From: an uncultured cyanobacterium
GTDB lineage: Bacteria; Cyanobacteriota; Cyanobacteriia; Pseudanabaenales; Pseudanabaenaceae
DNA length: 64,000 nucleotides
Assembly: GCA_963703315.1 (NCBI GenBank)
Contig: OY969811.1
Coordinates: 2,176,001-2,240,000 of the forward strand
Direction of reading: 5' to 3'
The notes under the pieces were generated by a model that ran no database searches, had not been told where the DNA came from, and saw only the letters and a program-made list of their open reading frames with translations. The position numbers were made by a program, and so were the translations under genes. The first letter of the stretch is position 1. Every line of letters starts with the position of its first letter. Positions 10,606-22,062 of the stretch are shown piece after piece.

Positions 10606-10703
10606 AAAAACTAAAAATGGCGTTGCCATTTTTAGTTTTGAAAACCCTTACTGGATTTGGTTTTTAATTCACAAAAGTGTGCCACCACTTTTGTGAATTG
10701 GTA
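10606..10703 (-). repeat. Two-hairpin ~98-bp dispersed element, copy A
   Basis: Its reverse complement aligns with 38439-38536. Confidence 0.75.
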
Positions 10704-10706
10704 CAG

Positions 10707-12200
10707 TTATGGATTTTCCTGCAAAATTGCTTCAGGGCGATCGCTTGTTAATTCATTTTTCAATCCATTTATCTCAACAGATGATGACTCCGCTAAAACT
10801 GCTGTTTGAGGAGGATTAAACTTGCCATTTTTCTCGTCAGGTAGCCATTTTAGAAATGGTAATGGTAATAGACTGCTGAGGTTCGCAATGACGATCAAAA
10901 TCCAGAGATTATCAAAATTAGATTCAGTCACACCGAGAAAATGGGTGAGTACAGCCCCTAATTGGAATGAACATAGGGCGGAGATATTAATCACTGACAT
11001 CAAAAGTGCAAATAAAGTTGCTTCGATACCTTCAGGACAGAGCCTTGCTGCCAAAACTAAAATAGGCATAAACGCAATTCTGCCAGCAACGGTCAAAATC
11101 AAGCTATCGCCAAGACTAAACCAGCGATCGTCAATGCCTAACGTTCTATTAGCATGAGTGACTAACAATAAACTAGTTAGTCCCAAAACAGTGGAAATAA
11201 TCGTTGTCCAAAAGAAAATTGTGCGGGTTGGCACACCTTTAAAAAAGCGTTGGAATAGCCACACTCCCAGAAGTCCTGCCCAACTCGCAAAAAATTTAAT
11301 TGTTCCTAAAAATTCTGGATTAAATTTCAGTTCATTGGTAGTGAAATAGAAAAAAGCGGTATCCGAACTGGGTGTTGCTTGCCAAATAAACAAGAAAAGT
11401 GTCGGTAGCCAAATTGCTTTATTGGTAAAGGCTTGACGCAACTGCCCAAAGTTGAACTTCAGCGACATCCATAGTTGCGAATTTCTCGATAAAGGTTTAG
11501 AAGTTACCGACTCTTGATTAGTTGTGGCATTAGTTGCTGCTGTGTCAGGAGCCACAATATGTACGTTAGACATTGGTGGATCAGCGATCGCAAAGGCAGC
11601 AATCCCCACTAGTAATGGTAGAAAGGCTGTAATCTCAAATACGAACTTCGCGCCAAAATGCTCCAATAAATAGCCACTCAAATATGCCGAGATAATTGCG
11701 CCAATTGATGAGGCAATCCAGCTAAAGGACTGCAAAGATCCTGCATCTCCCTCTGGTTCTAGTCTTGCGCGTTGGACAATTAGGGCATCCGTAATCGCAT
11801 CAGAAAAAGCTAGAGATAGTCCACCCAACGCAATCATCGCGATCGCCCAAAAGGGAGTAGTAACCCATATTCCCAAGCTCAACCAAGCAAAAATCCCTAA
11901 AACACTGGACAGCAACAGGTAAGGGCGACGACGATAGCCAAATATCGGCAATCCATCCGAAATCAGACCATAAAGGGGTTTAATCGTCCAAGGTAGCATG
12001 GTAATACCGACCATTGAAGCCACTTCCGCAGGACTTAATCCCAAATCATCTTTGAGGAAAAAACTCACGGCAAGCTGCGAGATCGCCATTGCCCCTTGTA
12101 CGAAATAAATAGTAGCGATCGCTGCCAACTCAAGGTCAAACGAGCGCCCCCGTAAACTTTTGAGCCAGTCTGATTGGATTAGCACTATAGGATTGCCCAA
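10707..12200 (-). CDS. Folate/biopterin (BT1) MFS transporter
   Basis: PWTIKPLYGLISDGLPIFGYRRRPY, LAARLCPEGIEATLFALLMS. Confidence 0.9.
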   Translation of the reverse strand: MGNPIVLIQSDWLKSLRGRSFDLELAAIATIYFVQGAMAISQLAVSFFLKDDLGLSPAEVASMVGITMLPWTIKPLYGLISDGLPIFGYRRRPYLLLSSVLGIFAWLSLGIWVTTPFWAIAMIALGGLSLAFSDAITDALIVQRARLEPEGDAGSLQSFSWIASSIGAIISAYLSGYLLEHFGAKFVFEITAFLPLLVGIAAFAIADPPMSNVHIVAPDTAATNATTNQESVTSKPLSRNSQLWMSLKFNFGQLRQAFTNKAIWLPTLFLFIWQATPSSDTAFFYFTTNELKFNPEFLGTIKFFASWAGLLGVWLFQRFFKGVPTRTIFFWTTIISTVLGLTSLLLVTHANRTLGIDDRWFSLGDSLILTVAGRIAFMPILVLAARLCPEGIEATLFALLMSVINISALCSFQLGAVLTHFLGVTESNFDNLWILIVIANLSSLLPLPFLKWLPDEKNGKFNPPQTAVLAESSSVEINGLKNELTSDRPEAILQENP

Positions 12201-12296: not shown

Positions 12297-12330
12297 CTAA
12301 TCGCCTATTCCATCAAATCAAACAGCGATA
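12297..12330 (+). repeat. Degenerate HIP1-bracketed repeat unit (left edge of island)
   Basis: ctaatcgcc-tattccatcaaatcaaacag-cgata. Confidence 0.6.
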
Positions 12331-12381
12331 ATTAAACACTATTTCTGATTATAATCAATATAAAAATTGTGGGCAAAATGT

Positions 12382-12969
12382 ATGATTGCTACTATTGCAT
12401 CGCCTAGCCTATCACCTACAGAATATCTAGAGTGGGAAGTAACACAAGAAGATAGATATGAGTATGAATATGGAGAGGTTATCGAGGTAATAGGGGGGAA
12501 GCTTGAAAACAATGAAATTGCTCTTAATTTAATTGTACTGATCCGAAGTCATTTACGTGATAAAGGTTGTCGTATCCTTGGTGGTGATGCGAAACTCATG
12601 ACCATTCCGAGCAATGTTTATTACTTTCCTGATGTGGTTGTTAGTTGCGATTCTCGCGATCGCTATGCTAGAGAGTTTTTACAATATCCTTGTTTAATTG
12701 CGGAAGTCTTGTCCCCTGCTACAGAAAGTCGCGATCGCGGGATTAAGTTACGCAACTATCTCAAGATCGCTTCATTACAAGAATATATGCTCATCAATTC
12801 AGATTCTCCAAGTATTGAGTTCTATCGTCGTAGCGATCGTACAGAGGTTTGGGAATATCTAACAATCAATAGTTCAGATTTAACCGTTAACGATCCTGAA
12901 GTTCAACTAACTAGCATAGATTTTAATCTTCCGCTATCACTCATCTATGAAAATGTTGATTTTGAGTAG
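12382..12969 (+). CDS. Uma2 family endonuclease
   Basis: EYLEWE...RYEY, YFPDVVV, IAEVLSPATESRDRGIK, LQEY. Confidence 0.9.
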   Translation: MIATIASPSLSPTEYLEWEVTQEDRYEYEYGEVIEVIGGKLENNEIALNLIVLIRSHLRDKGCRILGGDAKLMTIPSNVYYFPDVVVSCDSRDRYAREFLQYPCLIAEVLSPATESRDRGIKLRNYLKIASLQEYMLINSDSPSIEFYRRSDRTEVWEYLTINSSDLTVNDPEVQLTSIDFNLPLSLIYENVDFE

Positions 12970-12970
12970 T

Positions 12971-13009
12971 CCTAATCGCCTATTTATCCACATCAAACAG
13001 CGATCACCC
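12971..13009 (+). repeat. HIP1-bracketed repeat unit
   Basis: cctaatcgcc-tatttatccacatcaaacag-cgatcaccc. Confidence 0.7.
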
Positions 13010-13053
13010 TAGAGTTAGATATACTGAAGTTAATTTACTATTTACTCCTGCCT

Positions 13054-13398
13054 ATGAAATTACCAAATGGCGATCGCCCAGAAATTTCTATGCAAAAGAT
13101 CTTAGGGTATTGCTTAAACATCAATCATGATAAGGGTAAAGACAAGGCGAGAGTATTTCAATCTAGGCTGGGTATTACATTCAAAATACCGATCGCTTGG
13201 TTGAATTAATTCAAGTTGCGGCAGTTGAAGGTGAAGTTGTACAGGAAAGTAATACGAAATTTGGTAAGGAATATAAAGTGGATTGGGAAATCCCTAATAC
13301 TGGAGGTGTTGAGCTTCGGACTATTTGGGAAGTTAGTATAGAGTCTGGTTATCCACGATTGATTATTGATTAGTGCTTTTTTGAAGAGAGAGAAATAA
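13054..13398 (+). pseudogene. DUF6883-like putative toxin pseudogene (two frameshifts)
   Basis: MKLPNGDR...YCLNINHDKGKDKARVF; 1-bp loss near 13180; 7-bp duplication TTGATTA at 13359-13372. The repaired frame ends PRLISAFLKREK* with a TAATG overlap into the next gene. Confidence 0.75.
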
Positions 13399-13658
13399 TG
13401 AAAACTCCACAGTTACTTGATACGATCGCTATTCTAAAACCAATTTCCGTAGATAGACTTTCGCTAATGGAATCAGAGTATGATTTTAATTCGGCTTTGC
13501 CAGTGGGATTGGTTGGTACGATTGTGGATATTCATCAGGATAATCAAGGGGTTGATTATTTGGTGGAGTTTGCGGATTCTGATGGGTGTGAGTTTGCGAT
13601 CGCCTATTTGAAGGCTAATGAATTTCTTACTTTGCAGTATGAGCTTGCTGCGGCTTAG
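13398..13658 (+). CDS. DUF4926 domain protein
   Basis: LLDTIAIL...GLVGTIVDI...YLVEFADSDG. Confidence 0.8.
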   Translation: MKTPQLLDTIAILKPISVDRLSLMESEYDFNSALPVGLVGTIVDIHQDNQGVDYLVEFADSDGCEFAIAYLKANEFLTLQYELAAA

Positions 13659-13663
13659 AGTTG

Positions 13664-13771
13664 TCGCACCTCAACACCACAGACCCGATCGCCTATTTCC
13701 CACATCAAACAGCGATCTCCCCCTCACACCCCAAAAAACAGATCGCCTTTCCCTCACACCAAACAGCGATT
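13664..13771 (+). repeat. HIP1-bracketed repeat block
   Basis: Alternating cgatcgcc-tatttcccacatcaaacag / cgatc..-ccctcacaccccaaaaaaca units. Confidence 0.85.
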
Positions 13772-13772
13772 T

Positions 13773-14030
13773 CTAGTAGTGAAAGCGGCAGGCGAGAATT
13801 CTGATTTTATCGTCTAGAACTTCATAAACTAGACGATGTTCTTGATCGATACGGCGTGACCAGCAGCCAGATAGATCGTGTTTTAGAGCTTCGGGTTGTC
13901 CTGTTCCTTCAAATGGATTACGTTGGACTTCACGAATTAGTTTGATAATTTTTAAAGCTTTTTTACGATCGCTTTCAATCCACCAAGCTAAGTCTTCAAA
14001 AGCATCTGGATCAAATTCCAAGTTTTTCAC
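13773..14030 (-). CDS. Txe/YoeB family toxin
   Basis: AFEDLAWW...NPFEGTGQPEALKHDLSGCWSRRIDQEHRLVY...CRFHY; likely GTG start at 14030. Confidence 0.95.
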   Translation of the reverse strand: MKNLEFDPDAFEDLAWWIESDRKKALKIIKLIREVQRNPFEGTGQPEALKHDLSGCWSRRIDQEHRLVYEVLDDKIRILACRFHY

Positions 14031-14226
14031 AGGCTGCTTCCAAAGAGATTCCATCTTGACGTTTTCTAGCTTTAAGCAGTCTGTTTTTCATGGCTGGACT
14101 ACTAAGCAAATAGGCGGTTTCTCTTTCTGCCATTAGTTCTTGCCAAAAGGCAACGGGGACAACTACAGAAATTGTTTGCCCTTCTGAATCACAGATGTAT
14201 TGTAATGCGTTAGTCATAGCAGCCAA
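14011..14226 (-). CDS. Antitoxin (YefM-like C-terminus)
   Basis: ERETAYLLSSPAMKNRL; overlaps the toxin start. Confidence 0.8.
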   Translation of the reverse strand: MAAMTNALQYICDSEGQTISVVVPVAFWQELMAERETAYLLSSPAMKNRLLKARKRQDGISLEAACEKLGI

Positions 14227-14258
14227 TATAACTTACTAGATTAACCATAATTATAACT

Positions 14259-14375
14259 GATCGCCCCTTAACCACCCATCAACGCGATCGCCTATTTCTC
14301 CACATCAAACAGCGATCGCCCCCTCACACCCCAAAAAACAGATCGCCTTTCCCTCACACCAAACAGCGATCGCCC
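14259..14375 (+). repeat. HIP1-bracketed repeat block
   Basis: About 85 bp nearly identical to 13686-13770. Confidence 0.85.
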
Positions 14376-14385
14376 ATATTGGTGA

Positions 14386-14601
14386 TTAACTAGAAACTGC
14401 TGCTAATTGAGCAAATAATGGCTTGTCTTTGGGAAGTGTGCTGACTTGAAAGATAGAAAAGCCAATTACTTGACCATTAGTGTTTACTCGCTCCATTAGG
14501 TCGTCGTTTTCAGTTTCTCGCATATAGCCCAATTCATCTGAGAAGCGAACTTCTAGAAAGTCAGCTTCTGGATCGAACCAAATCTTTACAAATTGCGCCA
14601 T
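14386..14601 (-). CDS. DUF2283 domain protein (putative antitoxin)
   Basis: KIWFDPEADFLEVRF...GQVIGFSI. Confidence 0.8.
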   Translation of the reverse strand: MAQFVKIWFDPEADFLEVRFSDELGYMRETENDDLMERVNTNGQVIGFSIFQVSTLPKDKPLFAQLAAVSS

Positions 14602-14897
14602 AGTTCTAATCCTTGTTTTAGTTTGTCTGTAAAATAAGCTGTAATTATAAAGGCATCGTCAGAGTTATCTTTTATTACAACACATAACCATTTTGCCCCA
14701 ACTATTGTTTGTTCGTAAAAACGATAGTACAAGTACACTTGACTATCTGATCTTGATTGTCTTACAACTTCAGGGGTTTGCAGCACTATTTCTAGTTGAA
14801 ATCTCATATCTACCATTTCTGGATGATCAAGAATGTGTTGTAAGCGTTCTTCTGTTAGCCTAATTTGGCGATTTTGGTAGTCGGTAAGTATTTCCAT
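14586..14897 (-). CDS. Putative toxin partner of DUF2283
   Basis: IRLTEERLQHILDHPEM...FIITAYFT; overlaps the DUF2283 gene. Confidence 0.6.
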   Translation of the reverse strand: MEILTDYQNRQIRLTEERLQHILDHPEMVDMRFQLEIVLQTPEVVRQSRSDSQVYLYYRFYEQTIVGAKWLCVVIKDNSDDAFIITAYFTDKLKQGLELWRNL

Positions 14898-14943
14898 TAT
14901 CTAAGTTAAAAATTAGGCTGCTTCGGTAAATTTAGCGTCTTTA

Positions 14944-15097
14944 GCGATCGCAAAATCATCAAATTTCACAAAAATATAGCGATCGCCCTTCACCCCCACA
15001 AACCCGATCGCCTATTTCTCCATATCAAACAGCGATCGCCCCTCATCACCCACAAAACCCGATCGCATAAATCTCCACACCAAAAAGCGATCGCCCC
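14944..15097 (+). repeat. HIP1-bracketed repeat block
   Basis: Six CGATCGC sites, most 26-29 bp apart, with C/A-rich spacers. Confidence 0.85.
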
Positions 15098-15194
15098 AAA
15101 AAACTAAAAGTGGTTGTAAAATTTGGATATCTGACAACGATTGTGAATTGCCGATTAAAATGCTTATGGTTTATAGTGTGTATGGTGTGTTGAG

Positions 15195-15473
15195 ATGAGT
15201 ACCACTTTCGAGTGGGATGAGCAAAAAGAGGCTGATAATAAGGCAAAGCATGGCTTAGATTTTGAAACTGCTCAATATGCTTTTTTCGATCCAGACCGTT
15301 TGATTGTCCATGATTCGGAACATAGTGAAGTGGAGGAACGTTGGTTTTGTATCGGTAAAGTAGATGATCTTGTATTGACAGTGCGTTTTACTTATCGAGA
15401 TGGAGTGATTCGGATATTTGGGGCTGCTCAATGGCGTAAATGGAGGAAATTTTATGAACAACACAATTCCTGA
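15195..15473 (+). CDS. BrnT family toxin
   Basis: FEWDEQK...NKAKHGLDFETAQYAFFDP...EERWFCIG...VRFTYR. Confidence 0.9.
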   Translation: MSTTFEWDEQKEADNKAKHGLDFETAQYAFFDPDRLIVHDSEHSEVEERWFCIGKVDDLVLTVRFTYRDGVIRIFGAAQWRKWRKFYEQHNS

Positions 15474-15687
15474 TCCTGCTGAACCAATTGGAAATGTCAC
15501 TATTGTTAAAGATTTTTTGCCACCAGTGAATCAGTTAATTCCGAGGCAAAAGACGGTAACGATTACGATGGAATTCACTCAAGAAAGTATTGAGTTCTTT
15601 AAGCGTGAGGCTAAACGCCGTAATTCTTCATATCAAGAAATGATTTCCAATCTTGTGGATGCTTATGCAAAACAGAGTAAGGTATGA
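15454..15687 (+). CDS. BrnA/CopG-like antitoxin
   Basis: DFLPP...KTVTITMEF...FFKREAKRRNSSYQEMI; ATG at 15454 after GGAGG. Confidence 0.8.
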   Translation: MNNTIPDPAEPIGNVTIVKDFLPPVNQLIPRQKTVTITMEFTQESIEFFKREAKRRNSSYQEMISNLVDAYAKQSKV

Positions 15688-15698
15688 ATAATTGATTC

Positions 15699-15868
15699 TG
15701 ATCGCCCCCACAACACCCAACACCCGATCGCCCATTCCCTCAAATCAAACAGCGATCACCCCACACCACCCACAAACCCGATCGCCTATTCTCCCAAATC
15801 AAACAGCGATCGCACCCTCATCACCCACAAACCCCGATCGCCCATTTCCACATCAAACAGGGATCGCA
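15699..15868 (+). repeat. HIP1-bracketed repeat block
   Basis: Seven GATCGC-like sites with alternating spacers. Confidence 0.85.
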
Positions 15869-15932
15869 TTGCTAATTTATATTGACGATTACGTTAGAAT
15901 TAATGCAAAACAAGTAGTAGAGCCGTAATGTT

Positions 15933-16142
15933 ATGCAAATAAAAGAACTCACTACCGAACAGTTTCGTTTACTAGTTCGTGAAGTTGTAATTGAAGTGCT
16001 AGAAGAATATATCGATCTAGATGAAGGTAAGAAGTTAAAAGCATCGGTTGTGGAACGCTTATTACGACAACAACATCAACCAACTATTATTCCTGCGGCT
16101 CAAGCTATGCAATCATTGGGGCTTAATTGGGATGAGTTATAG
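15933..16142 (+). CDS. Putative antitoxin
   Basis: MQIKELTTEQFRLLVREVV; overlaps the RelE-like gene. Confidence 0.7.
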   Translation: MQIKELTTEQFRLLVREVVIEVLEEYIDLDEGKKLKASVVERLLRQQHQPTIIPAAQAMQSLGLNWDEL

Positions 16143-16392
16143 TATTGACTTTACTTCTGAGGCGATCGCTGATCTTGCAAAAATCGACCGCACTAATCAA
16201 ATACGGATAGCTCGTAAAATCAAGTGGTTGGGCGAAAATTTTGAACAAATTACGCCTCTATCACTTTCTGGCAATTTATCAAGCTTTTTTAAGCTGCGTG
16301 TTGGAGATTATCGAGTTCTTTACGAGATCGCGCAATCACAAAAAAGTCTCACTATTCATCAGATCGGACATCGCAGAGAAATTTATGATTAG
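16132..16392 (+). CDS. RelE/ParE family toxin
   Basis: YSIDFTSEAIADL...KLRVGDYRVLY...IGHRREIY. Confidence 0.9.
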   Translation: MSYSIDFTSEAIADLAKIDRTNQIRIARKIKWLGENFEQITPLSLSGNLSSFFKLRVGDYRVLYEIAQSQKSLTIHQIGHRREIYD

Positions 16393-16397
16393 ATGAA

Positions 16398-16515
16398 TGA
16401 TCGCCTATTTCCTCAACATCAAACAGCGATCGCCCCTCACTACCCACAAACCCGATCGCCTATCTCCACATAAAACAGCGATCGCCCATTTCCTCAACCA
16501 AAACAGCGATCGCCA
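16398..16515 (+). repeat. HIP1-bracketed repeat block
   Basis: Five GATCGCC sites with the same spacer family. Confidence 0.85.
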
Positions 16516-16517
16516 TA

Positions 16518-16853
16518 TCAGTATTCGTCATCTTCTAAATCGATTTCTAGATCTGAAATCAAATCTTGTGTAACAGCATAGACATCTCGCTTATCACCTT
16601 CCTTACGCCTTCCTACACCCACGATAACTACCACTACTCGATCTTGTTCGATTCGATAAATAATCCGATAACGCTGTCCGACAGACCGAATACTACGATA
16701 ACCCAATAGTTCTTCAGATAAAGCCTTACCTTGTTTTTCTGGTTCATCCTTGAGCTTCTCAATCCTTTTCAAGATCACGCTTTGTTCGCGCCGATCCTTG
16801 ATTGCAGTAAACAGTTTCTGCGCTTGAACAGAAAAAATAATTCTATATTCCAT
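16518..16853 (-). CDS. RelE/ParE family toxin
   Basis: GKALSEELLGYRSIR..QRYRIIYRI...VGRRKEGDKRDVY. Confidence 0.9.
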   Translation of the reverse strand: MEYRIIFSVQAQKLFTAIKDRREQSVILKRIEKLKDEPEKQGKALSEELLGYRSIRSVGQRYRIIYRIEQDRVVVVIVGVGRRKEGDKRDVYAVTQDLISDLEIDLEDDEY

Positions 16854-16860
16854 AGCAGTA

Positions 16861-17121
16861 TTAGAAACCCAACTCTAATTTCAAGGCTTCTAAACTAATT
16901 GTTTGTCCTAAATCTGCTTGTCGAATACCTTCTCTCAAATCTGCCATAAACTCGCGATCACTTAAAATCTCCATTGTTTCAACCAAGGAAGCAAACTGTT
17001 GCATACTCAAAGCAACAATTACAGGTTTACCGTCTTGCGTGATAATCGCTGGATCTTTGAGGTTCTTAGATAGCGCTGGTAATTGTTGCTGAGCTTCAGC
17101 AACAGTCAAATAATTAAGCAT
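16861..17121 (-). CDS. Phd/YefM family antitoxin
   Basis: VAEAQQQLPAL...IITQDGKPV...SLVETMEILSD. Confidence 0.9.
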   Translation of the reverse strand: MLNYLTVAEAQQQLPALSKNLKDPAIITQDGKPVIVALSMQQFASLVETMEILSDREFMADLREGIRQADLGQTISLEALKLELGF

Positions 17122-17192
17122 AATGTTTTTTGAGTGACTATTGTTATTTTAGTCAATTTCAAGTTATTTAAGATTGTACGATATCCAGTCAA

Positions 17193-17425
17193 GCGATCGC
17201 CCCTCATCACCCAAACCCCGATCGCCTAAATCTCAACATCAAACTGCGATCGCCCCTCATCACCCAAAACGCCCGATCGCCTATTCCCCAACAAACAGCG
17301 ATCGCTCCTCAACACCCAAAACCCGATCGCCTATTCTCTGCAAATCAACCAGCGATCGCACCCTCATCACCCATAAAACCCGATCGCCTATTCCCCACAT
17401 CAAACAGCGATCGCCCCTCACCAAA
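17193..17425 (+). repeat. Largest HIP1-bracketed repeat block
   Basis: Nine CGATCGC sites at 26-29 bp spacing with two alternating spacer types. Confidence 0.85.
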
Positions 17426-17479
17426 CCTAAAAATTATTTGATAAAATCAGGTGTTAGTGTCAAAGAGGAAATATTTGCT

Positions 17480-17857
17480 ATGAAAAGGGATATGAATCTA
17501 ATTCGTAAACTTCTTTTGCAGTTGGAAGAAGCGCCAGCAGAAGTATATGTATCAAATTTAGAAGTGGCTGGATATTCGGATGAAGAAATTGCTTACAATG
17601 CTTACCTGATGATTGATGGCGGATTGGCAGAAGGCAGACAGTCTAAACAAACTAATCAAATGGGAGATAGTTGCCCTGTAGCTGTGACCTTGACTAATTT
17701 AACTTGGGAAGGGCATGAGTTTTTTGACTCAATTAGAAATGATTCTATCTGGAAGAATACACTAGGCTATATCAAGGAAAAAGGTGGGAATGTTCCATTT
17801 AACTTAATACCGCCAATCGCAGCGCTTTTTGTCAAGCAACATTTTGGGTTGTCATAA
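17480..17857 (+). CDS. DUF2513 domain protein
   Basis: MKRDMNLIRKLLL...LTWEGHEFFDSIRNDSIW; ATG at 17480. Confidence 0.85.
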   Translation: MKRDMNLIRKLLLQLEEAPAEVYVSNLEVAGYSDEEIAYNAYLMIDGGLAEGRQSKQTNQMGDSCPVAVTLTNLTWEGHEFFDSIRNDSIWKNTLGYIKEKGGNVPFNLIPPIAALFVKQHFGLS

Positions 17858-17924: not shown

Positions 17925-20900
17925 GTGGGGAAATCTAACTGGCGATCGTTTGAAGAGGCTCGTGCTTTTGTACATCAACTTCAACTAAAAAATGTAGCAG
18001 AGTGGAAGGCTTGGGCGAAAACTGAAGCAAAACCATCAGATATCCCTTGTAATCCCTATGGAGTCTATAAAGACAACGGCTGGATTAGTTATGGTGACTG
18101 GCTTGGCACTGGTGTAGTTGCATCTCAAAATTATACGTATTTATCATTTGCAGAAGCTCGTGATCTTGTCCATAAATTGCAGTTAAGAAATCAACAAGAA
18201 TGGAGAGATTGGGTCAAGACTGATGCTAAACCTGAATGTATGCCTGCCAATCCTTATGGTACTTATAAAGACAAAGGATGGCAAGGTTGGGGGGATTGGC
18301 TCGGCACTGGTAGACTTGCAAATCGGAATCGCACTTATCTTCCTTTTACAGAAGCTCGTATTTTTGCTCATCAACTTAGGTTAAATACTACTGAAGAATG
18401 GAAATTGTGGACAAAGACTGATGCTAAACCTGATAATGTACCTGCTGATCCTGCACGTGTATACAAAAGCAAGGGGTGGCAAGGTTGGGGGGATTGGCTC
18501 GGCACTGGTAGGCTTGCTAACCAGAATCGCATTTATCTTCCTTTTGTGGAGGCTCGTGCATTTGCTCATCAACTTAAGTTAAAGACTGCTGAGGAATGGA
18601 AAGTCTGGGCAAAAACTGACACTAAGCCTAATAACATACCTGCTAACCCTGCACTTGTATACAAAGACAATGGATGGATAGGTTGGGGGGATTGGCTTAA
18701 TACTGGAAGAATTGCCAACCAAAATCGCATTCTTCTCCCTTTCCAAGAAGCTCGTGCATATGTTCACAAATTAAACTTAAAAAGTAGGGAAGAATGGAAA
18801 TCTTGGGCAAGGAGTAAAGATAGACCTAGCAATATTCCTGCTGATCCATATAAAGCCTATGAAAAGGAAGGATGGTTAGGGTGGGGGGATTGGTCTGGCA
18901 TTATAAGCCGATGGAAGCCCAATGCTATCTTGAGTTTTCTATATAGTCTCAAGCCTATTTTATTTGGTTTGGAATCTGCTGAACTTTACGCCATCATGAG
19001 GCAAAACGGTATGATTGCTTCTATTGGCAATAAAAGAAATAATCCCGAAATCTTCAAAAGCATTAAAGATTTATGCTCTACCAAAGATCTCGAATCTGAA
19101 TGCAATAAATTAATTTCTCAGATTGAAGATTTAAGAAATAACGGAAGTGGTGAATCTGATGATGCGGAGTTTGAAGATTTTTTCAAAGATGACGACTTAA
19201 ATAGTAGCGAAGAAATAGATACTAATTTAGTCCCTGCTGAAATTGAAAATACTGATACTGAACTACCTCAACTAAAATCCTTTGACTCATTAAAAGCAGT
19301 TGACTTACTTGTAGAAGCAGGAATCACCTCAGATCATGAAACTATCGAATTTTTAATCTGCAATCGCGTTAGCGCCCTATGGCAAGCCTGCCTAAACAAC
19401 GACCCTACCTTTGACCTAGACCGACTTCGCAACGAAACAGGCGGCACATACTTTCAGACGATCCGCGATCGCTTCCTCAGTCAACACGATGGCGCAGCAA
19501 ACCTCACCATACCCAACGGCTATAACTTCCCATATCCACCCAACCTGATGCAACGCCTCACCGCCTATCGCATCCTCACAGAAAGAAGGATCGGTAACTG
19601 GTCAGGAGTTGGCGCAGGGAAAACCATATCCGCCATCTTTGCCAGTCGCGTCATTAACGCCAAATTCACAATCATCATCGCCTTTAACAGCACCATCGAA
19701 GGATGGGCAAAAGCGATCGCCCAAGTCTATCCCGACAGCATCATTTACCAAAAAGAACGCGGTGAAATCAGCGTAGATCGCAACCACCATAACTATCTCA
19801 TTCTCAACTTCGAGAAATTCCAACAACCCTACTCCGCCGAACTTGTCGGCAACATCCTCACCAATCACCAGATCGATTTTGTCGTCATCGATGAAATCCA
19901 AAACGTCAAACAACGCGATCCCAATCCCAACAAAGAAAGCAAACGCCGCAAAACCCTTAACTCCCTACTCTCCGAAGCATCCCGCCAAAACCCTGAACTC
20001 TGCGTCTTAGGCATGAGCGCCACACCCGTCATCAACAACCTCTACGAAGCCAAAGCACTGCTCGAAATGACAAGGGGCGAAAAATTTGACGAATTGAAAA
20101 CCTTCAGCACGATCGCCAATGCCCTCGCCATGCATGAAAAACTGATGCTTCATGGCATCCGCTATCGTCCCAATTACAAGATTGCGATCGCCGAAAGCTT
20201 TCCCGAAATCTCAGGCGAACATCTGCGACCTCAACTCATCGCCGCCATCAAAACTAGCCCCCTCGCTGTCGAGCAAATCCTCCTCTCAGCCAAAATCGAC
20301 ACCATCATCGCCCATCTCAAAACAGGAACCCTCATATATACCCACTATCGCGAAGGCATGGTCGAACCACTCCACAAAGCGATCGCCGCCGCAGGTTACA
20401 AGGTGGGCTTATTCACAGGCGTAGAAGACACCAAGGAACGGGATTCCGCCAAACAGGAATTTATCGCCAGAAAAATCGACATTCTCATCGGCACGGCTCC
20501 CATTGGTACAGGCGTTGATGGACTGCAATATGTTTGCGATCGCCTGATTATCGCCAGCCTTCCTTGGACTCATGCCGAATACGAGCAACTAGTCGGGCGC
20601 ATCTATCGCCAAAAATCATCATTTGCCAAAGTAGAAGTAATTATTCCCCAAGTCATCCTCGATCATCAGGGCGATATCTGGTCATGGGATCGTCAATACC
20701 GATGGAGTCGCATTCAATGGAAAAAATCCCTCGCTGACACGGCGATCGATGGCGTAATTCCTAAAGGCGAACTCGCCTCGGAAAAAGTCGTCCTCCAAAA
20801 AGCAGGAGAAGCGCTGCAAACATGGATCGATCGCGTCGAAAGTGGCGATATCTATGAAATCAACCGTGAAGAATTGCGCGTCCCCTTACCCGAAGCGATC

Positions 20901-21494
20901 GCTAAAATCCTGCAACGCCGCTTTGGTGACTTCTCGGCGATGAACAACCGCTTCAATAATTCCTACAGCCATACCACAGGCGATCGCCTCAAAGCAAACC
21001 CCGAAGAATGGTATCAATACCACCACCTCTATCGCGCCGCCCGTGAATCATGGAAAGAAATCCCCTACGAAAAAATTGCCGAAAAGCTCCAAAACTACAC
21101 CAATCTCCAGATCGGGGACTTCGGTTGCGGAGAAGCCAAACTAGCCGAATTACTTCCCAATCATCAAGTCCATTCCTTCGACCACATCGCCATCAACGCA
21201 AAAGTACAAGCCTGTGATATCGCCCATACACCTCTCCCAGATGCCACCCTCGATGTCGCCATCTTTTCCCTATCCCTCATGGGCTTAAACTATGCCGAAT
21301 ATCTCCAAGAAGCCCATCGCACCCTCAAAGGTGGCGGCAGTCTCCTCATCGCCGAAACCATCAGCCGATGGACAGACAAAAAGCAAGAACTTCTAGATTT
21401 ACTAACGAGTTTAGGATTCACTGTTGTTAAAGTGCAAACAGGCGATCGCTTCCTTTACATCAATGCCACTAAGCCACTGATCACCTTACTTTGA
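17925..21494 (+). CDS. Fusion: 5x66-aa Trp-rich repeats + SF2 (SNF2-like) helicase/ATPase + Rrp8/Methyltransf_8-like SAM methyltransferase
   Basis: Repeats F.EAR.F...L.LK...EW..W....KP..IP.NP..VYK..GW.GWGDWLG. Helicase motifs GVGAGKT, DEIQ, SATP, GTGVDG, QLVGRIYR. MTase motifs GDFGCGEAKLA, HSFDH, ACDIAHTPL, VAIFSLSLMG. Confidence 0.85.
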   Translation: MGKSNWRSFEEARAFVHQLQLKNVAEWKAWAKTEAKPSDIPCNPYGVYKDNGWISYGDWLGTGVVASQNYTYLSFAEARDLVHKLQLRNQQEWRDWVKTDAKPECMPANPYGTYKDKGWQGWGDWLGTGRLANRNRTYLPFTEARIFAHQLRLNTTEEWKLWTKTDAKPDNVPADPARVYKSKGWQGWGDWLGTGRLANQNRIYLPFVEARAFAHQLKLKTAEEWKVWAKTDTKPNNIPANPALVYKDNGWIGWGDWLNTGRIANQNRILLPFQEARAYVHKLNLKSREEWKSWARSKDRPSNIPADPYKAYEKEGWLGWGDWSGIISRWKPNAILSFLYSLKPILFGLESAELYAIMRQNGMIASIGNKRNNPEIFKSIKDLCSTKDLESECNKLISQIEDLRNNGSGESDDAEFEDFFKDDDLNSSEEIDTNLVPAEIENTDTELPQLKSFDSLKAVDLLVEAGITSDHETIEFLICNRVSALWQACLNNDPTFDLDRLRNETGGTYFQTIRDRFLSQHDGAANLTIPNGYNFPYPPNLMQRLTAYRILTERRIGNWSGVGAGKTISAIFASRVINAKFTIIIAFNSTIEGWAKAIAQVYPDSIIYQKERGEISVDRNHHNYLILNFEKFQQPYSAELVGNILTNHQIDFVVIDEIQNVKQRDPNPNKESKRRKTLNSLLSEASRQNPELCVLGMSATPVINNLYEAKALLEMTRGEKFDELKTFSTIANALAMHEKLMLHGIRYRPNYKIAIAESFPEISGEHLRPQLIAAIKTSPLAVEQILLSAKIDTIIAHLKTGTLIYTHYREGMVEPLHKAIAAAGYKVGLFTGVEDTKERDSAKQEFIARKIDILIGTAPIGTGVDGLQYVCDRLIIASLPWTHAEYEQLVGRIYRQKSSFAKVEVIIPQVILDHQGDIWSWDRQYRWSRIQWKKSLADTAIDGVIPKGELASEKVVLQKAGEALQTWIDRVESGDIYEINREELRVPLPEAIAKILQRRFGDFSAMNNRFNNSYSHTTGDRLKANPEEWYQYHHLYRAARESWKEIPYEKIAEKLQNYTNLQIGDFGCGEAKLAELLPNHQVHSFDHIAINAKVQACDIAHTPLPDATLDVAIFSLSLMGLNYAEYLQEAHRTLKGGGSLLIAETISRWTDKKQELLDLLTSLGFTVVKVQTGDRFLYINATKPLITLL

Positions 21495-21535: not shown

Positions 21536-21796
21536 ATGTCAACCAATAGCCCAACTGTATTTGCAGAAGAATTAGCCAATGAGCTAGACAAAATCCCTGA
21601 GCAGTATTGGTCAAACCTTTTGCAGATTATTCGTTTATTTCGTGAAAGCGTTACGCCAGAATCAGAAAACCATTCTCAAGATCCTGCAATTGTCGAGGCG
21701 ATCGAAGATTTAGGGCTTGTCCATGCCATGCTAGAAGTCAAAGACGAAAAGCCTCTTAGTCTCCAAGAAGCACTTGCCGAAATGGAAAGAGCATGA
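21536..21796 (+). CDS. Putative antitoxin
   Basis: EAIEDLGLVHAMLEVKDEKPLSLQEAL; ATGA overlap with the RelE-like gene. Confidence 0.7.
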   Translation: MSTNSPTVFAEELANELDKIPEQYWSNLLQIIRLFRESVTPESENHSQDPAIVEAIEDLGLVHAMLEVKDEKPLSLQEALAEMERA

Positions 21797-22062
21797 ATGT
21801 TAATTATCTTCCCAGCTTTCTTAAAGAACTTAAAGATCTCAGAAGTACACCTTACTTCAAACCCATAAACACACTTGTATTTGAGGAGATTCCTAAACTT
21901 GCTGGGTTGGCAGATATCAAAAATGTCAAAAAGCTACAGGGGTATGAAAATGCGTATCGAATCAAAGTAGGAGATTATCGAATTGGAGTGATCTTTGAAG
22001 ACGAAACCGTTACATTTTGTAGAGTATTGCATCGCAAAGAAATTTATCGCTATTTCCCATAA
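21793..22062 (+). CDS. RelE/ParE family toxin
   Basis: KKLQGYENAYRIKVGDYRIG...VLHRKEIYRYFP. Confidence 0.9.
   Translation: MNVNYLPSFLKELKDLRSTPYFKPINTLVFEEIPKLAGLADIKNVKKLQGYENAYRIKVGDYRIGVIFEDETVTFCRVLHRKEIYRYFP

Follow-up and report, generated by a model that had tools for sequence, protein, structure and literature searches.

How small gene modules come to be collected in rows between repeats, and what exchanges them, is the question raised by a locus in the genome of an uncultured cyanobacterium of the Pseudanabaenaceae. In the stretch analysed (contig OY969811.1, positions 2,176,001 to 2,240,000, 64,000 nucleotides; hereafter the window), modules of toxin-antitoxin (TA) type stand between repeat blocks, each built of two G-poor spacers (A and B, in units of 26-28 bp) that alternate in tandem, with a core of the highly iterated palindrome HIP1 (CGATCGC) at each boundary. 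The initial annotation, made from the sequence alone, had read these blocks as shared sites for the gain, shuffling and loss of small cassettes. Our comparison supports this role, through the enrichment of TA genes around the blocks and the recurrence of the same cassettes with altered neighbours, and the blocks almost certainly bound mobile, shuffled cassettes.

The genus, which is Pseudanabaena by named records, provides most of the evidence. We compared 213 inter-block cassettes, cut from 49 loci of relatives, which had been selected for holding pattern matches, and 13 loci of this genome (55 loci, 23 genomes). The cassettes have a median length of 640 bp and fall into 70 families, 36 of them with several members; homologous cassettes are ~92% identical, and the largest arrays hold 19 cassettes. 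Orientation relative to the block was kept in 487/487 homologous pairs and inverted in none; the pairs are not independent within families, yet no family violates the rule. Cassette order was indistinguishable from random (6 repeated adjacencies among 118, vs 6.1 +/- 2.3 in 2000 shuffles). Each window cassette occurs in 2-12 other genomes with different neighbours, and the shared order in relatives that the initial annotation had named as counter-evidence was not seen, the comparison being one between species and not between strains of one species. Since the same pairs stand in different order but in constant orientation across species, the blocks are likely the swap points. Homologues of the window cassettes mostly align from HIP1 core to HIP1 core, a few being shortened or block-less on one side. 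In two relatives (G063 and G060) the flanking genes ppsA and chlH are 92% identical on both sides, yet the cassette and terminal genes differ: the blocks enclose Uma2 or YoeB, and the terminal slot, which follows the last block, is filled by a UvrD-type gene or by Gabija.

The pattern of the A unit was found in 44/48 genomes of the genus, including 41/41 of good quality, and in 0/299 genomes outside it; the reversed pattern gave no match. A stricter pattern returned 112 stretches, and among the matches listed (80) the labels were Pseudanabaena or looser cyanobacterial ones, with one Tumidithrix. Upstream of the BT1-family transporter gene that borders the window array, 0/19 loci of relatives carried an array and two had one weak unit, so the comparison was made by cassette and by anchor gene instead. 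A scan of metagenomes for the BT1 junction, aimed at a conspecific comparison, returned no contig, and a scan for chlH returned seven, three of which, near-identical to one genome locus, were array-less. Viral contigs gave three single matches and no array. A 110-kb Pseudanabaena plasmid record (NZ_AP017566.1, L311) holds icd and a block array with HigBA and MazF-type modules, an anchor locus that is usually chromosomal being plasmid-borne here.

This genome is a single 4.57-Mb contig, and a scan free of any one spacer dialect found 70 blocks at 38 loci in it; 16 loci hold more than one block, and in 14/16 the blocks are co-oriented. According to Pfam matches of 143 proteins near blocks, mostly two-gene TA-type modules lie between blocks and housekeeping genes outside. 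An even scatter of the blocks, the other finding that had been named as counter-evidence, was not seen: 40/55 strong blocks have a TA-like gene no more than 250 bp away, vs 128/1085 of the other non-genic HIP1 sites, and 33/47 when the window array is left out, although the set of TA-like genes was collected by BLAST with Pfam-labelled proteins from next to blocks as queries, a choice that favours the positive set. The strong blocks with no TA neighbour (15/55) include single units amid housekeeping genes. One lone unit (G000:C1:149350-149383, L002) lies between convergent ylmH-like and uvrB genes and may be an empty site.

In the window, the eight blocks and the seven modules were found where the initial annotation had placed them. 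The C/A-rich strand of the blocks is the forward one in 8/8, though the cassettes face both ways, and HIP1 cores within blocks are spaced mostly 24-29 bp apart (26-29 bp had been given). The array is confirmed as eight co-oriented blocks separating six TA-type pairs and one Uma2 gene:

10707..12200, - strand: BT1-family transporter (Pfam BT1); housekeeping flank on the old (5') side, outside the system
12297..12334, + strand: block 1, a single degenerate A unit
12367..12969, + strand: cassette 1, gene for a Uma2 putative endonuclease (PF05685, E 1e-30; PADLOC match PDC-S03)
12972..13009, + strand: block 2, a single degenerate A unit
13054..13658, + strand: cassette 2, DUF6883 and DUF4926 (13398-13658); family F3, 8 copies in 8 genomes
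13661..13773, + strand: block 3 (B-A-B-A)
13773..14214, - strand: cassette 3, small antitoxin-like open reading frame (ORF; 14011-14214) and YoeB toxin (ORF 13773-14054)
14257..14375, + strand: block 4 (B-A-B-A)
14386..14897, - strand: cassette 4, RelE/PBECR2-like ORF (14586-14897) and DUF2283 (14386-14601)
14944..15096, + strand: block 5, in which the first unit (~14944-14978) is atypical and moves along with cassette 4
15195..15687, + strand: cassette 5, BrnT (PF04365, E 1e-23) and BrnA-like antitoxin; family F18, 4 genomes
15698..15869, + strand: block 6
15933..16392, + strand: cassette 6, 69-aa antitoxin-like ORF and RelE/ParE toxin (16132-16392); family F13, 6 genomes
16397..16515, + strand: block 7
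16518..17121, - strand: cassette 7, Phd/YefM antitoxin (16861-17121) and RelE/ParE toxin (16518-16853); family F19, 4 genomes
17193..17432, + strand: block 8, longer than the other seven, on the anchor side (3' end)
17480..17857, + strand: DUF2513 gene, which fills the variable terminal slot and is not followed by a block; in relatives this slot is occupied by anti-phage-type genes
17925..21494, + strand: 'Hel', a 1189-aa repeat-helicase-methyltransferase gene, the putative long-homology anchor of the window array
21536..22062, + strand: RelB-like/ParE pair lacking blocks; a near-identical copy precedes chlH at the next array of this genome

The gene labels fared less well than the positions, several identities (DUF6883, YefM and the toxin of cassette 4) being weaker than had been claimed. 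The Uma2 module is one gene and not a pair; ~90% identical copies lie at loci of three relatives, and a partial copy in a fourth. The DUF6883 gene of cassette 2 is broken across two frames (13054-13209 and 13197-13373). The YoeB toxin of cassette 3 is well matched (PF06769, E 1e-34, and TIGR02116), whereas the label YefM for its partner is unconfirmed, with a weak RelB-like match alone (E 0.0011); the cassette belongs to family F0, of which all 14 copies in 13 genomes lie antisense to the block strand. The ORF in toxin position of cassette 4 has PBECR2/DUF4258 matches that are all sub-threshold, and copies of this cassette in two other genomes are 96-97% identical. The 69-aa partner of RelE in cassette 6 gave no match in the domain search. 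Over the 70 bases that precede the terminal slot, one relative (G006) is identical to the window.

Contigs of the best-matching public sequencing run bridge BT1, cassette 1 and cassette 2, as well as cassettes 5, 6 and 7, with no difference from the window; this run is possibly the source of the window itself, and the agreement is therefore not independent. In the gap between a glyoxalase-like gene and BT1, the window holds a short high-copy element (10607-10703) with very high contig depth and, in all four runs, many loose ends at fixed places, as in a miniature mobile element.

Since the genome contains 8,231 HIP1 sites, a chance origin of the blocks had to be excluded. A hidden Markov model of the unit gave no strong match on the reversed genome, vs 108 and 153 on the real one, and outside long genes a G-poor spacer separates 88/104 HIP1 pairs that are 26-30 bp apart but only 5/126 at 37-60 bp. 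The alternation of A and B noticed initially holds in 840/896 transitions of the 228 blocks of the window dialect, in which the core after an A unit is GCGATCGC in 266/382 cases and the core after a B unit CCGATCGC in 320/458. On the C/A strand the spacers contain 3% G. Blocks range in length from one to more than 30 units, and conservation is centred on the cores and 5-8 flanking bases, while the unit middles vary freely. One block of 460 bp (G000:C1:1371776-1372234, L005) has a three-unit period and a more complex dialect. A 37-bp repeat that begins with HIP1, 1.2 Mb from the window, shares the design of the blocks and matches units at two other loci of this genome; it is likely another dialect. 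An RNA family or a hairpin function of the blocks was rejected, as an Rfam search of the window gave no match and the stems of folded block strands consist of HIP1 paired with itself, with open loops between. By a consensus scan only, promoter-like sites in the blocks number 10 (15.1 in shuffles) and terminator-like sites 1 (4.1 in shuffles). No replichore bias of the block strands was evident in this genome, where GC skew is uninformative.

The cassette junctions fall inside HIP1. Among 141 left and 158 right junction cores, compared with 307 internal cores between an A and a B unit, the left ones keep GCGAT at 0.92-0.99 but often lose CGC, for which the values are 0.78, 0.66 and 0.80 vs 0.99, 0.93 and 0.97 in internal cores; the right ones keep (G)ATCGC and match the first two HIP1 bases in 0.46 and 0.56 only. 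Such a pattern is the outcome that would be expected of insertion into the middle of HIP1 at a staggered cut or at a slip. Units adjoining cassettes are barely more alike within a family (0.65-0.73) than between families (0.61-0.73); the flanking units are not inherited with the cassette, and a mapping of crossovers through the linkage of the two was given up, this linkage being almost nil. Exact matches of at least 40 bases occur in 2/129 adjacent, 3/517 non-adjacent and 3/1458 cross-genome block pairs. Given their rarity, a CRISPR-like duplication of the block upon insertion was rejected, and no regular target duplication was found at the cassettes. An exception stands in the window, where 71 bases of block 3 (13700-13770) and block 4 (14300-14370), on either side of the YoeB cassette, are 99% identical, probably through a recent local conversion or duplication of a kind that is rare elsewhere.

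The arrays are polar, with short, degenerate blocks at one end and the longest block, one to three larger defence genes and a conserved anchor gene at the other. Block length has a median of 68 bp for first, 91 bp for internal and 154 bp for terminal blocks (p 0.013 and 0.005). The one to three larger genes behind the last block differ between genomes; among 25 proteins of this slot scanned with PADLOC, the matches include GajA/GajB, PsyrT/PsyrA, LmuB, PDC-S39, PDC-S20 and type II methyltransferases, and 11 proteins gave no match. After the slot recurs an anchor, which is chlH or Hel in the window dialect and, in four other dialects, icd, rbcS-rbcX-rbcL (rbcS and rbcX confirmed, rbcL presumed from size and position), acnB or one unidentified cluster, whereas the flank away from the anchor differs in nearly every genome. 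There are at least five spacer dialects in the genus, with largely separate cassette pools; four cassette families were seen to cross dialects. The large gene that follows many arrays was considered as a mobility gene and rejected, since it is chlH. In 20 further genomes, chlH ends had blocks at 10 of 16 informative loci and none at six, four being too short; three of the ten had pattern matches listed on that contig beforehand.

Full-length copies of Hel are 91-96% identical across the genus and often 5'-truncated, and at least 13 other genomes have Hel, or a remnant of it, inside a block array or up to ~10 kb 3' of one. The protein begins with 66-aa repeats that match nothing in Pfam, and these are followed by an SNF2-type helicase and a Methyltransf_8 domain; in full-length relatives the open frame varies (1158-1454 aa), and the truncation of many copies is from the 5' side. 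As a catalyst Hel was rejected, because 11/48 genomes were matchless and most copies truncated, while blocks are present in 44/48; it is kept as an anchor only. The block-less RelB/ParE pair (window 21536-22062; L111:6630-7177) is 93-99% identical at its occurrences and ends both the Hel and the chlH tails, hinting that the two arrays were formerly one locus.

A scan of 399 genomes outside the genus with two dialect-free patterns gave 3 and 8 matching genomes, ten in all; about half of the genomes in each draw belong to other classes, and both patterns are strict, as the first misses this genome itself. Nine of the ten were examined. Seven, which represent four families, carry G-poor HIP1 blocks immediately next to TA pairs or Uma2 genes; some form block-module-block runs, and one genome has GmrSD and then chlH behind its blocks. 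Of the other two, one has a lone unit close to a Panacea antitoxin gene, and the other has no such neighbour. Comparable blocks therefore flank such modules in four other cyanobacterial families. The tenth matching genome, from another family, has a long tandem array (G241:C1:955384-955722, L356) of 33-34-bp units that are bounded by CGATCGC and have G-rich, hairpin-like spacers.

As to what exchanges the cassettes, we slightly favour host recombination with incoming DNA, in which one crossover would lie in the anchor gene and one at a HIP1-centred microhomology. A module would be captured where the HIP1 site between an A and a B unit is cut, or slips, in its middle, leaving GCGAT on the left and (G)ATCGC on the right. 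DNA from a relative would then pair along kilobases of an anchor (chlH, icd, rbcLXS, acnB or Hel), and the second crossover could take place at any block, through 13-25 bp of HIP1-centred identity within the dialect, by which the array tail would be replaced or extended; crossovers from block to block inside one array would delete or reorder cassettes. The asymmetric A and B spacers would impose the single orientation and keep the dialects mostly separate. Since DNA flanked by direct repeats is easily lost, addictive toxin-antitoxin pairs would be the ones to persist.

If incoming DNA is anchored by long homology, silent divergence is expected to fall towards the array. In chlH of 10 genomes, divergence at four-fold sites falls in this direction from 0.50 through 0.47, 0.41 and 0.39 to 0.29, and is 0.245 in the last 134 codons; base make-up is constant from codon 900 on, and the 3' drop is the largest of 15 genes. 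Hel has a four-fold divergence of 0.11-0.25 over its 3' two thirds, vs a median of 0.51 for 248 other genes, and cassette genes differ from those of the window at 0.20 of 1629 four-fold sites, against the same median. The genome contains comEC and dprA.

Several observations weigh against host recombination of this kind, or against the role of the blocks. The tree of the chlH 3' end is star-like and does not reject the tree of the middle part (approximately unbiased test, p 0.53), a control split of the middle itself was incongruent (p 0.023), and divergence at the 3' end falls in amino acids also. For rbcL/rbcS and the 5' end of icd, low divergence may reflect codon bias; along arrays, the gradient in age is weak (rho 0.19, p 0.037). 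The exact identity between blocks has a median of only 17-18 bases, which is short for RecA by textbook figures. The search for junctions favoured the retained part of each core, although on the left the same rule was used on the control. No excision joint was found in contigs of the best-matching run, and no circle or event was seen; joints in three other runs have short sides (34-41 bases) and may be mis-mapped repeats. Moreover, a block is nearby in 39/146 TA-like modules of this genome only, 6/16 informative chlH loci have no block, and the BT1-junction and chlH scans found no conspecific pair with arrays.

The architecture had been called integron-like with no integrase in view. The co-oriented sites and the shuffled modules bear this out, but no IntI was found in this genome and no attC in the window array; the likeness is one of architecture only. 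The best match to TIGR02249 in this single-contig genome scores 32 bits, with a cut-off of 265, and there is no resolvase or large serine recombinase in the genome. About half of the genus does possess classical integrons, with IntI and attC, at varied loci and apart from the HIP1 arrays (L146-L164). Could the arrays nevertheless be groups of clustered attC sites that have no integron-integrase (CALINs), with aberrant attC sites served by an IntI in trans? Their cassette size and TA content resemble those of chromosomal integrons (PMC13108822), CALINs are described as frequent in genomes with no IntI (PMC4889954), and 23/48 genomes of the genus have an IntI above the family cut-off. However, 0/19 IntI loci of relatives carry a block array, three holding one isolated unit; a simple search for attC arms (RYYYAAC...GTTRRRY) found canonical sites at 2/6 IntI loci and none in the window array; a single cassette of 213 matches an IntI locus, at 68%; IntI is missing from 5/5 block-bearing genomes of other families as well as from this one; and the folded strands, with their open loops, pair nothing but HIP1. 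This explanation is already largely refuted, and we hold it to be the least probable of all.

A dedicated enzyme encoded elsewhere, either a HIP1-directed nuclease or a site-specific recombinase, might instead cut the core between A and B units in its asymmetric context, release cassettes as circles and insert them into other blocks, the signal in the anchors being a by-product of selection on neighbouring defence genes. The position of junctions at one place within HIP1, as from a staggered cut, agrees with this, as do conservation that is centred on cores and their 5-8 flanking bases, the short exact identity between blocks and the full randomisation of order; site-specific recombination at HIP1 in PCC 7002 and insertion of the small dispersed repeat SDR5 into HIP1 have been reported (PMC4390886). 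The sole intact tyrosine recombinase of this genome is XerC-like, with 507 aa and an extra N-terminal domain 47% identical to its own catalytic domain, and this long form occurs in 45/47 genus genomes and in both genomes of the block-bearing sister genus g149, these being the only two genera among those searched. It was nevertheless rejected as the enzyme, since it co-occurs with blocks in the family but is found in 0/5 block-bearing genomes of other families. Arrays have no recombinase gene beside them, the TetR-integrase next to one block appears to lack catalytic residues, and an enzyme loose enough for five dialects is not expected to keep their pools separate. We therefore regard a dedicated enzyme as unlikely, though still a serious competitor. 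Much less probable is that the blocks are selfish or regulatory mini-repeats, of SDR or bacterial interspersed mosaic element (BIME) type or insulators, which gather at TA hot spots while the modules move otherwise. The variable block length, the strong blocks away from TA genes and the targeting of HIP1 by SDR5 in Nostocaceae (PMC5861425) would fit, but independent insertion would yield neither a single orientation in every homologous pair nor ends at the same HIP1 core across genomes, the blocks are neither promoter- nor terminator-like, and the palindromes around the genome's single Y1 transposase gene are different ones.

The genes considered in this search deserve a short description. The XerC-like gene lies at L165:9114-10637 (G000:C1:1754114-1755637), its N-terminal copy of the catalytic domain being apparently inactive, and a single-sequence fold of the protein was unusable (mean predicted local distance difference test score, pLDDT, 37). 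A TetR domain fused to a degenerate tyrosine-recombinase domain (L018:3085-4332) adjoins a block and a BrnT module; by comparison with the motif of the family, the first catalytic arginine and the histidine of HxxR appear to be missing, and it was rejected as apparently inactive. The Y1 transposase (Y1_Tnp) gene (L166, G000:C1:348969-349250) resembles the transposases associated with repetitive extragenic palindromes (REP; RAYT) and stands between repeated palindromes of a different kind from the blocks; in L071 and L097 the ends of cassettes, too, are broken up by palindromic elements of broadly this type. IntI, resolvase, large serine recombinase and RAYT were all rejected as the enzyme, being absent or unlinked.

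The blocks can be set beside several known systems. A BIME alternates a palindrome with two kinds of linker, as the A/B blocks do, yet no RAYT-type gene is linked to the blocks here, in contrast to REP/BIME elements with RAYT. A dif site has inverted arms, and the block unit is the reverse, with a palindromic centre and unlike arms. The dif modules of Acinetobacter (pdif/XerCD; PMC13141974) are described as TA-rich modules that are bounded by ~28-bp sites and shuffle with a host enzyme acting in trans, which is similar, but they are plasmid-borne and invert, whereas the cassettes of our arrays never flip and their units are tandem. Chromosomal integrons and CALINs (Cury et al. 2016, PMC4889954; PMC13108822) share modules of 0.5-0.9 kb between co-oriented sites, arrays far from an integrase, a common cassette pool in variable order and TA pairs with their own orientation; the blocks differ in having no attC hairpin, attI or linked IntI and in joints that are HIP1 tandem repeats of variable length, and their arrays in occupying several loci per genome, with dialect-specific pools and mostly TA cargo. 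The promoter early stem-loop (PeSL) cassettes of T4-type phages (Arbiol et al. 2010, PMC2839356) undergo gain, deletion and shuffling at short repeats with no integrase, and at the blocks, too, genes are gained, lost and reordered with breakpoints at the repeat, although PeSLs are, as described there, promoter-plus-terminator units of phage genomes, while the blocks are chromosomal, based on HIP1, tied to anchors and neither promoter- nor terminator-like. Homology-facilitated illegitimate recombination (PMC6382021) combines one long RecA anchor with one short-homology junction, as we propose, but is portrayed as rare and unprogrammed, whereas the short junctions here would be pre-built, repeated and HIP1-centred. 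SDR5 is reported to insert between bases 3 and 4 of HIP1 (PMC4390886), inside which our junctions also lie; in the accounts available (PMC4390886, PMC5861425) it is reported from Nostocaceae only and not as a gene-cassette boundary, and is set apart by this description.

The block system does not conform to the definitions of integrons, dif modules, PeSLs or REP/RAYT elements. By analogy, PeSL shuffling is the nearest match to the way in which it likely works, and it is integron-like in outcome but likely closer to PeSL shuffling or homology-facilitated recombination in mechanism. HIP1 repeat blocks as cassette boundaries were not found described in a full-text literature search, which had most subscription journals and supplements outside its scope.

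The function of HIP1 is described as having been open for three decades (PMC5861425, PMC13756078). Here HIP1 forms the joint in a natural system of gene exchange, of which hundreds of outcomes are on record, and its role in recombination becomes testable on native substrates, the read-out being a marked cassette that is lost, gained or reordered. This cassette-array architecture is invisible to integron finders, and the slot behind the last block is a place to find anti-phage systems (Gabija, PsyrTA, Lamassu, PDC-S39, PDC-S20 and restriction-modification) along with many unannotated genes; the arrays may also point to an orientation-fixed, enzyme-free stacking of genes in cyanobacteria. Tentatively, and with rather less confidence than in the exchange through anchors, we suggest that HIP1 might be the crossover core of a cyanobacterial counterpart of the integron that needs no integrase, recurring in at least five families, in which dialect blocks would serve as addressed docking sites and a methylation-guided HIP1 cutter would start the exchange. 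If this holds true, cyanobacteria would capture toxin-antitoxin and anti-phage genes inside a palindrome and trade them across species beside their most conserved genes.

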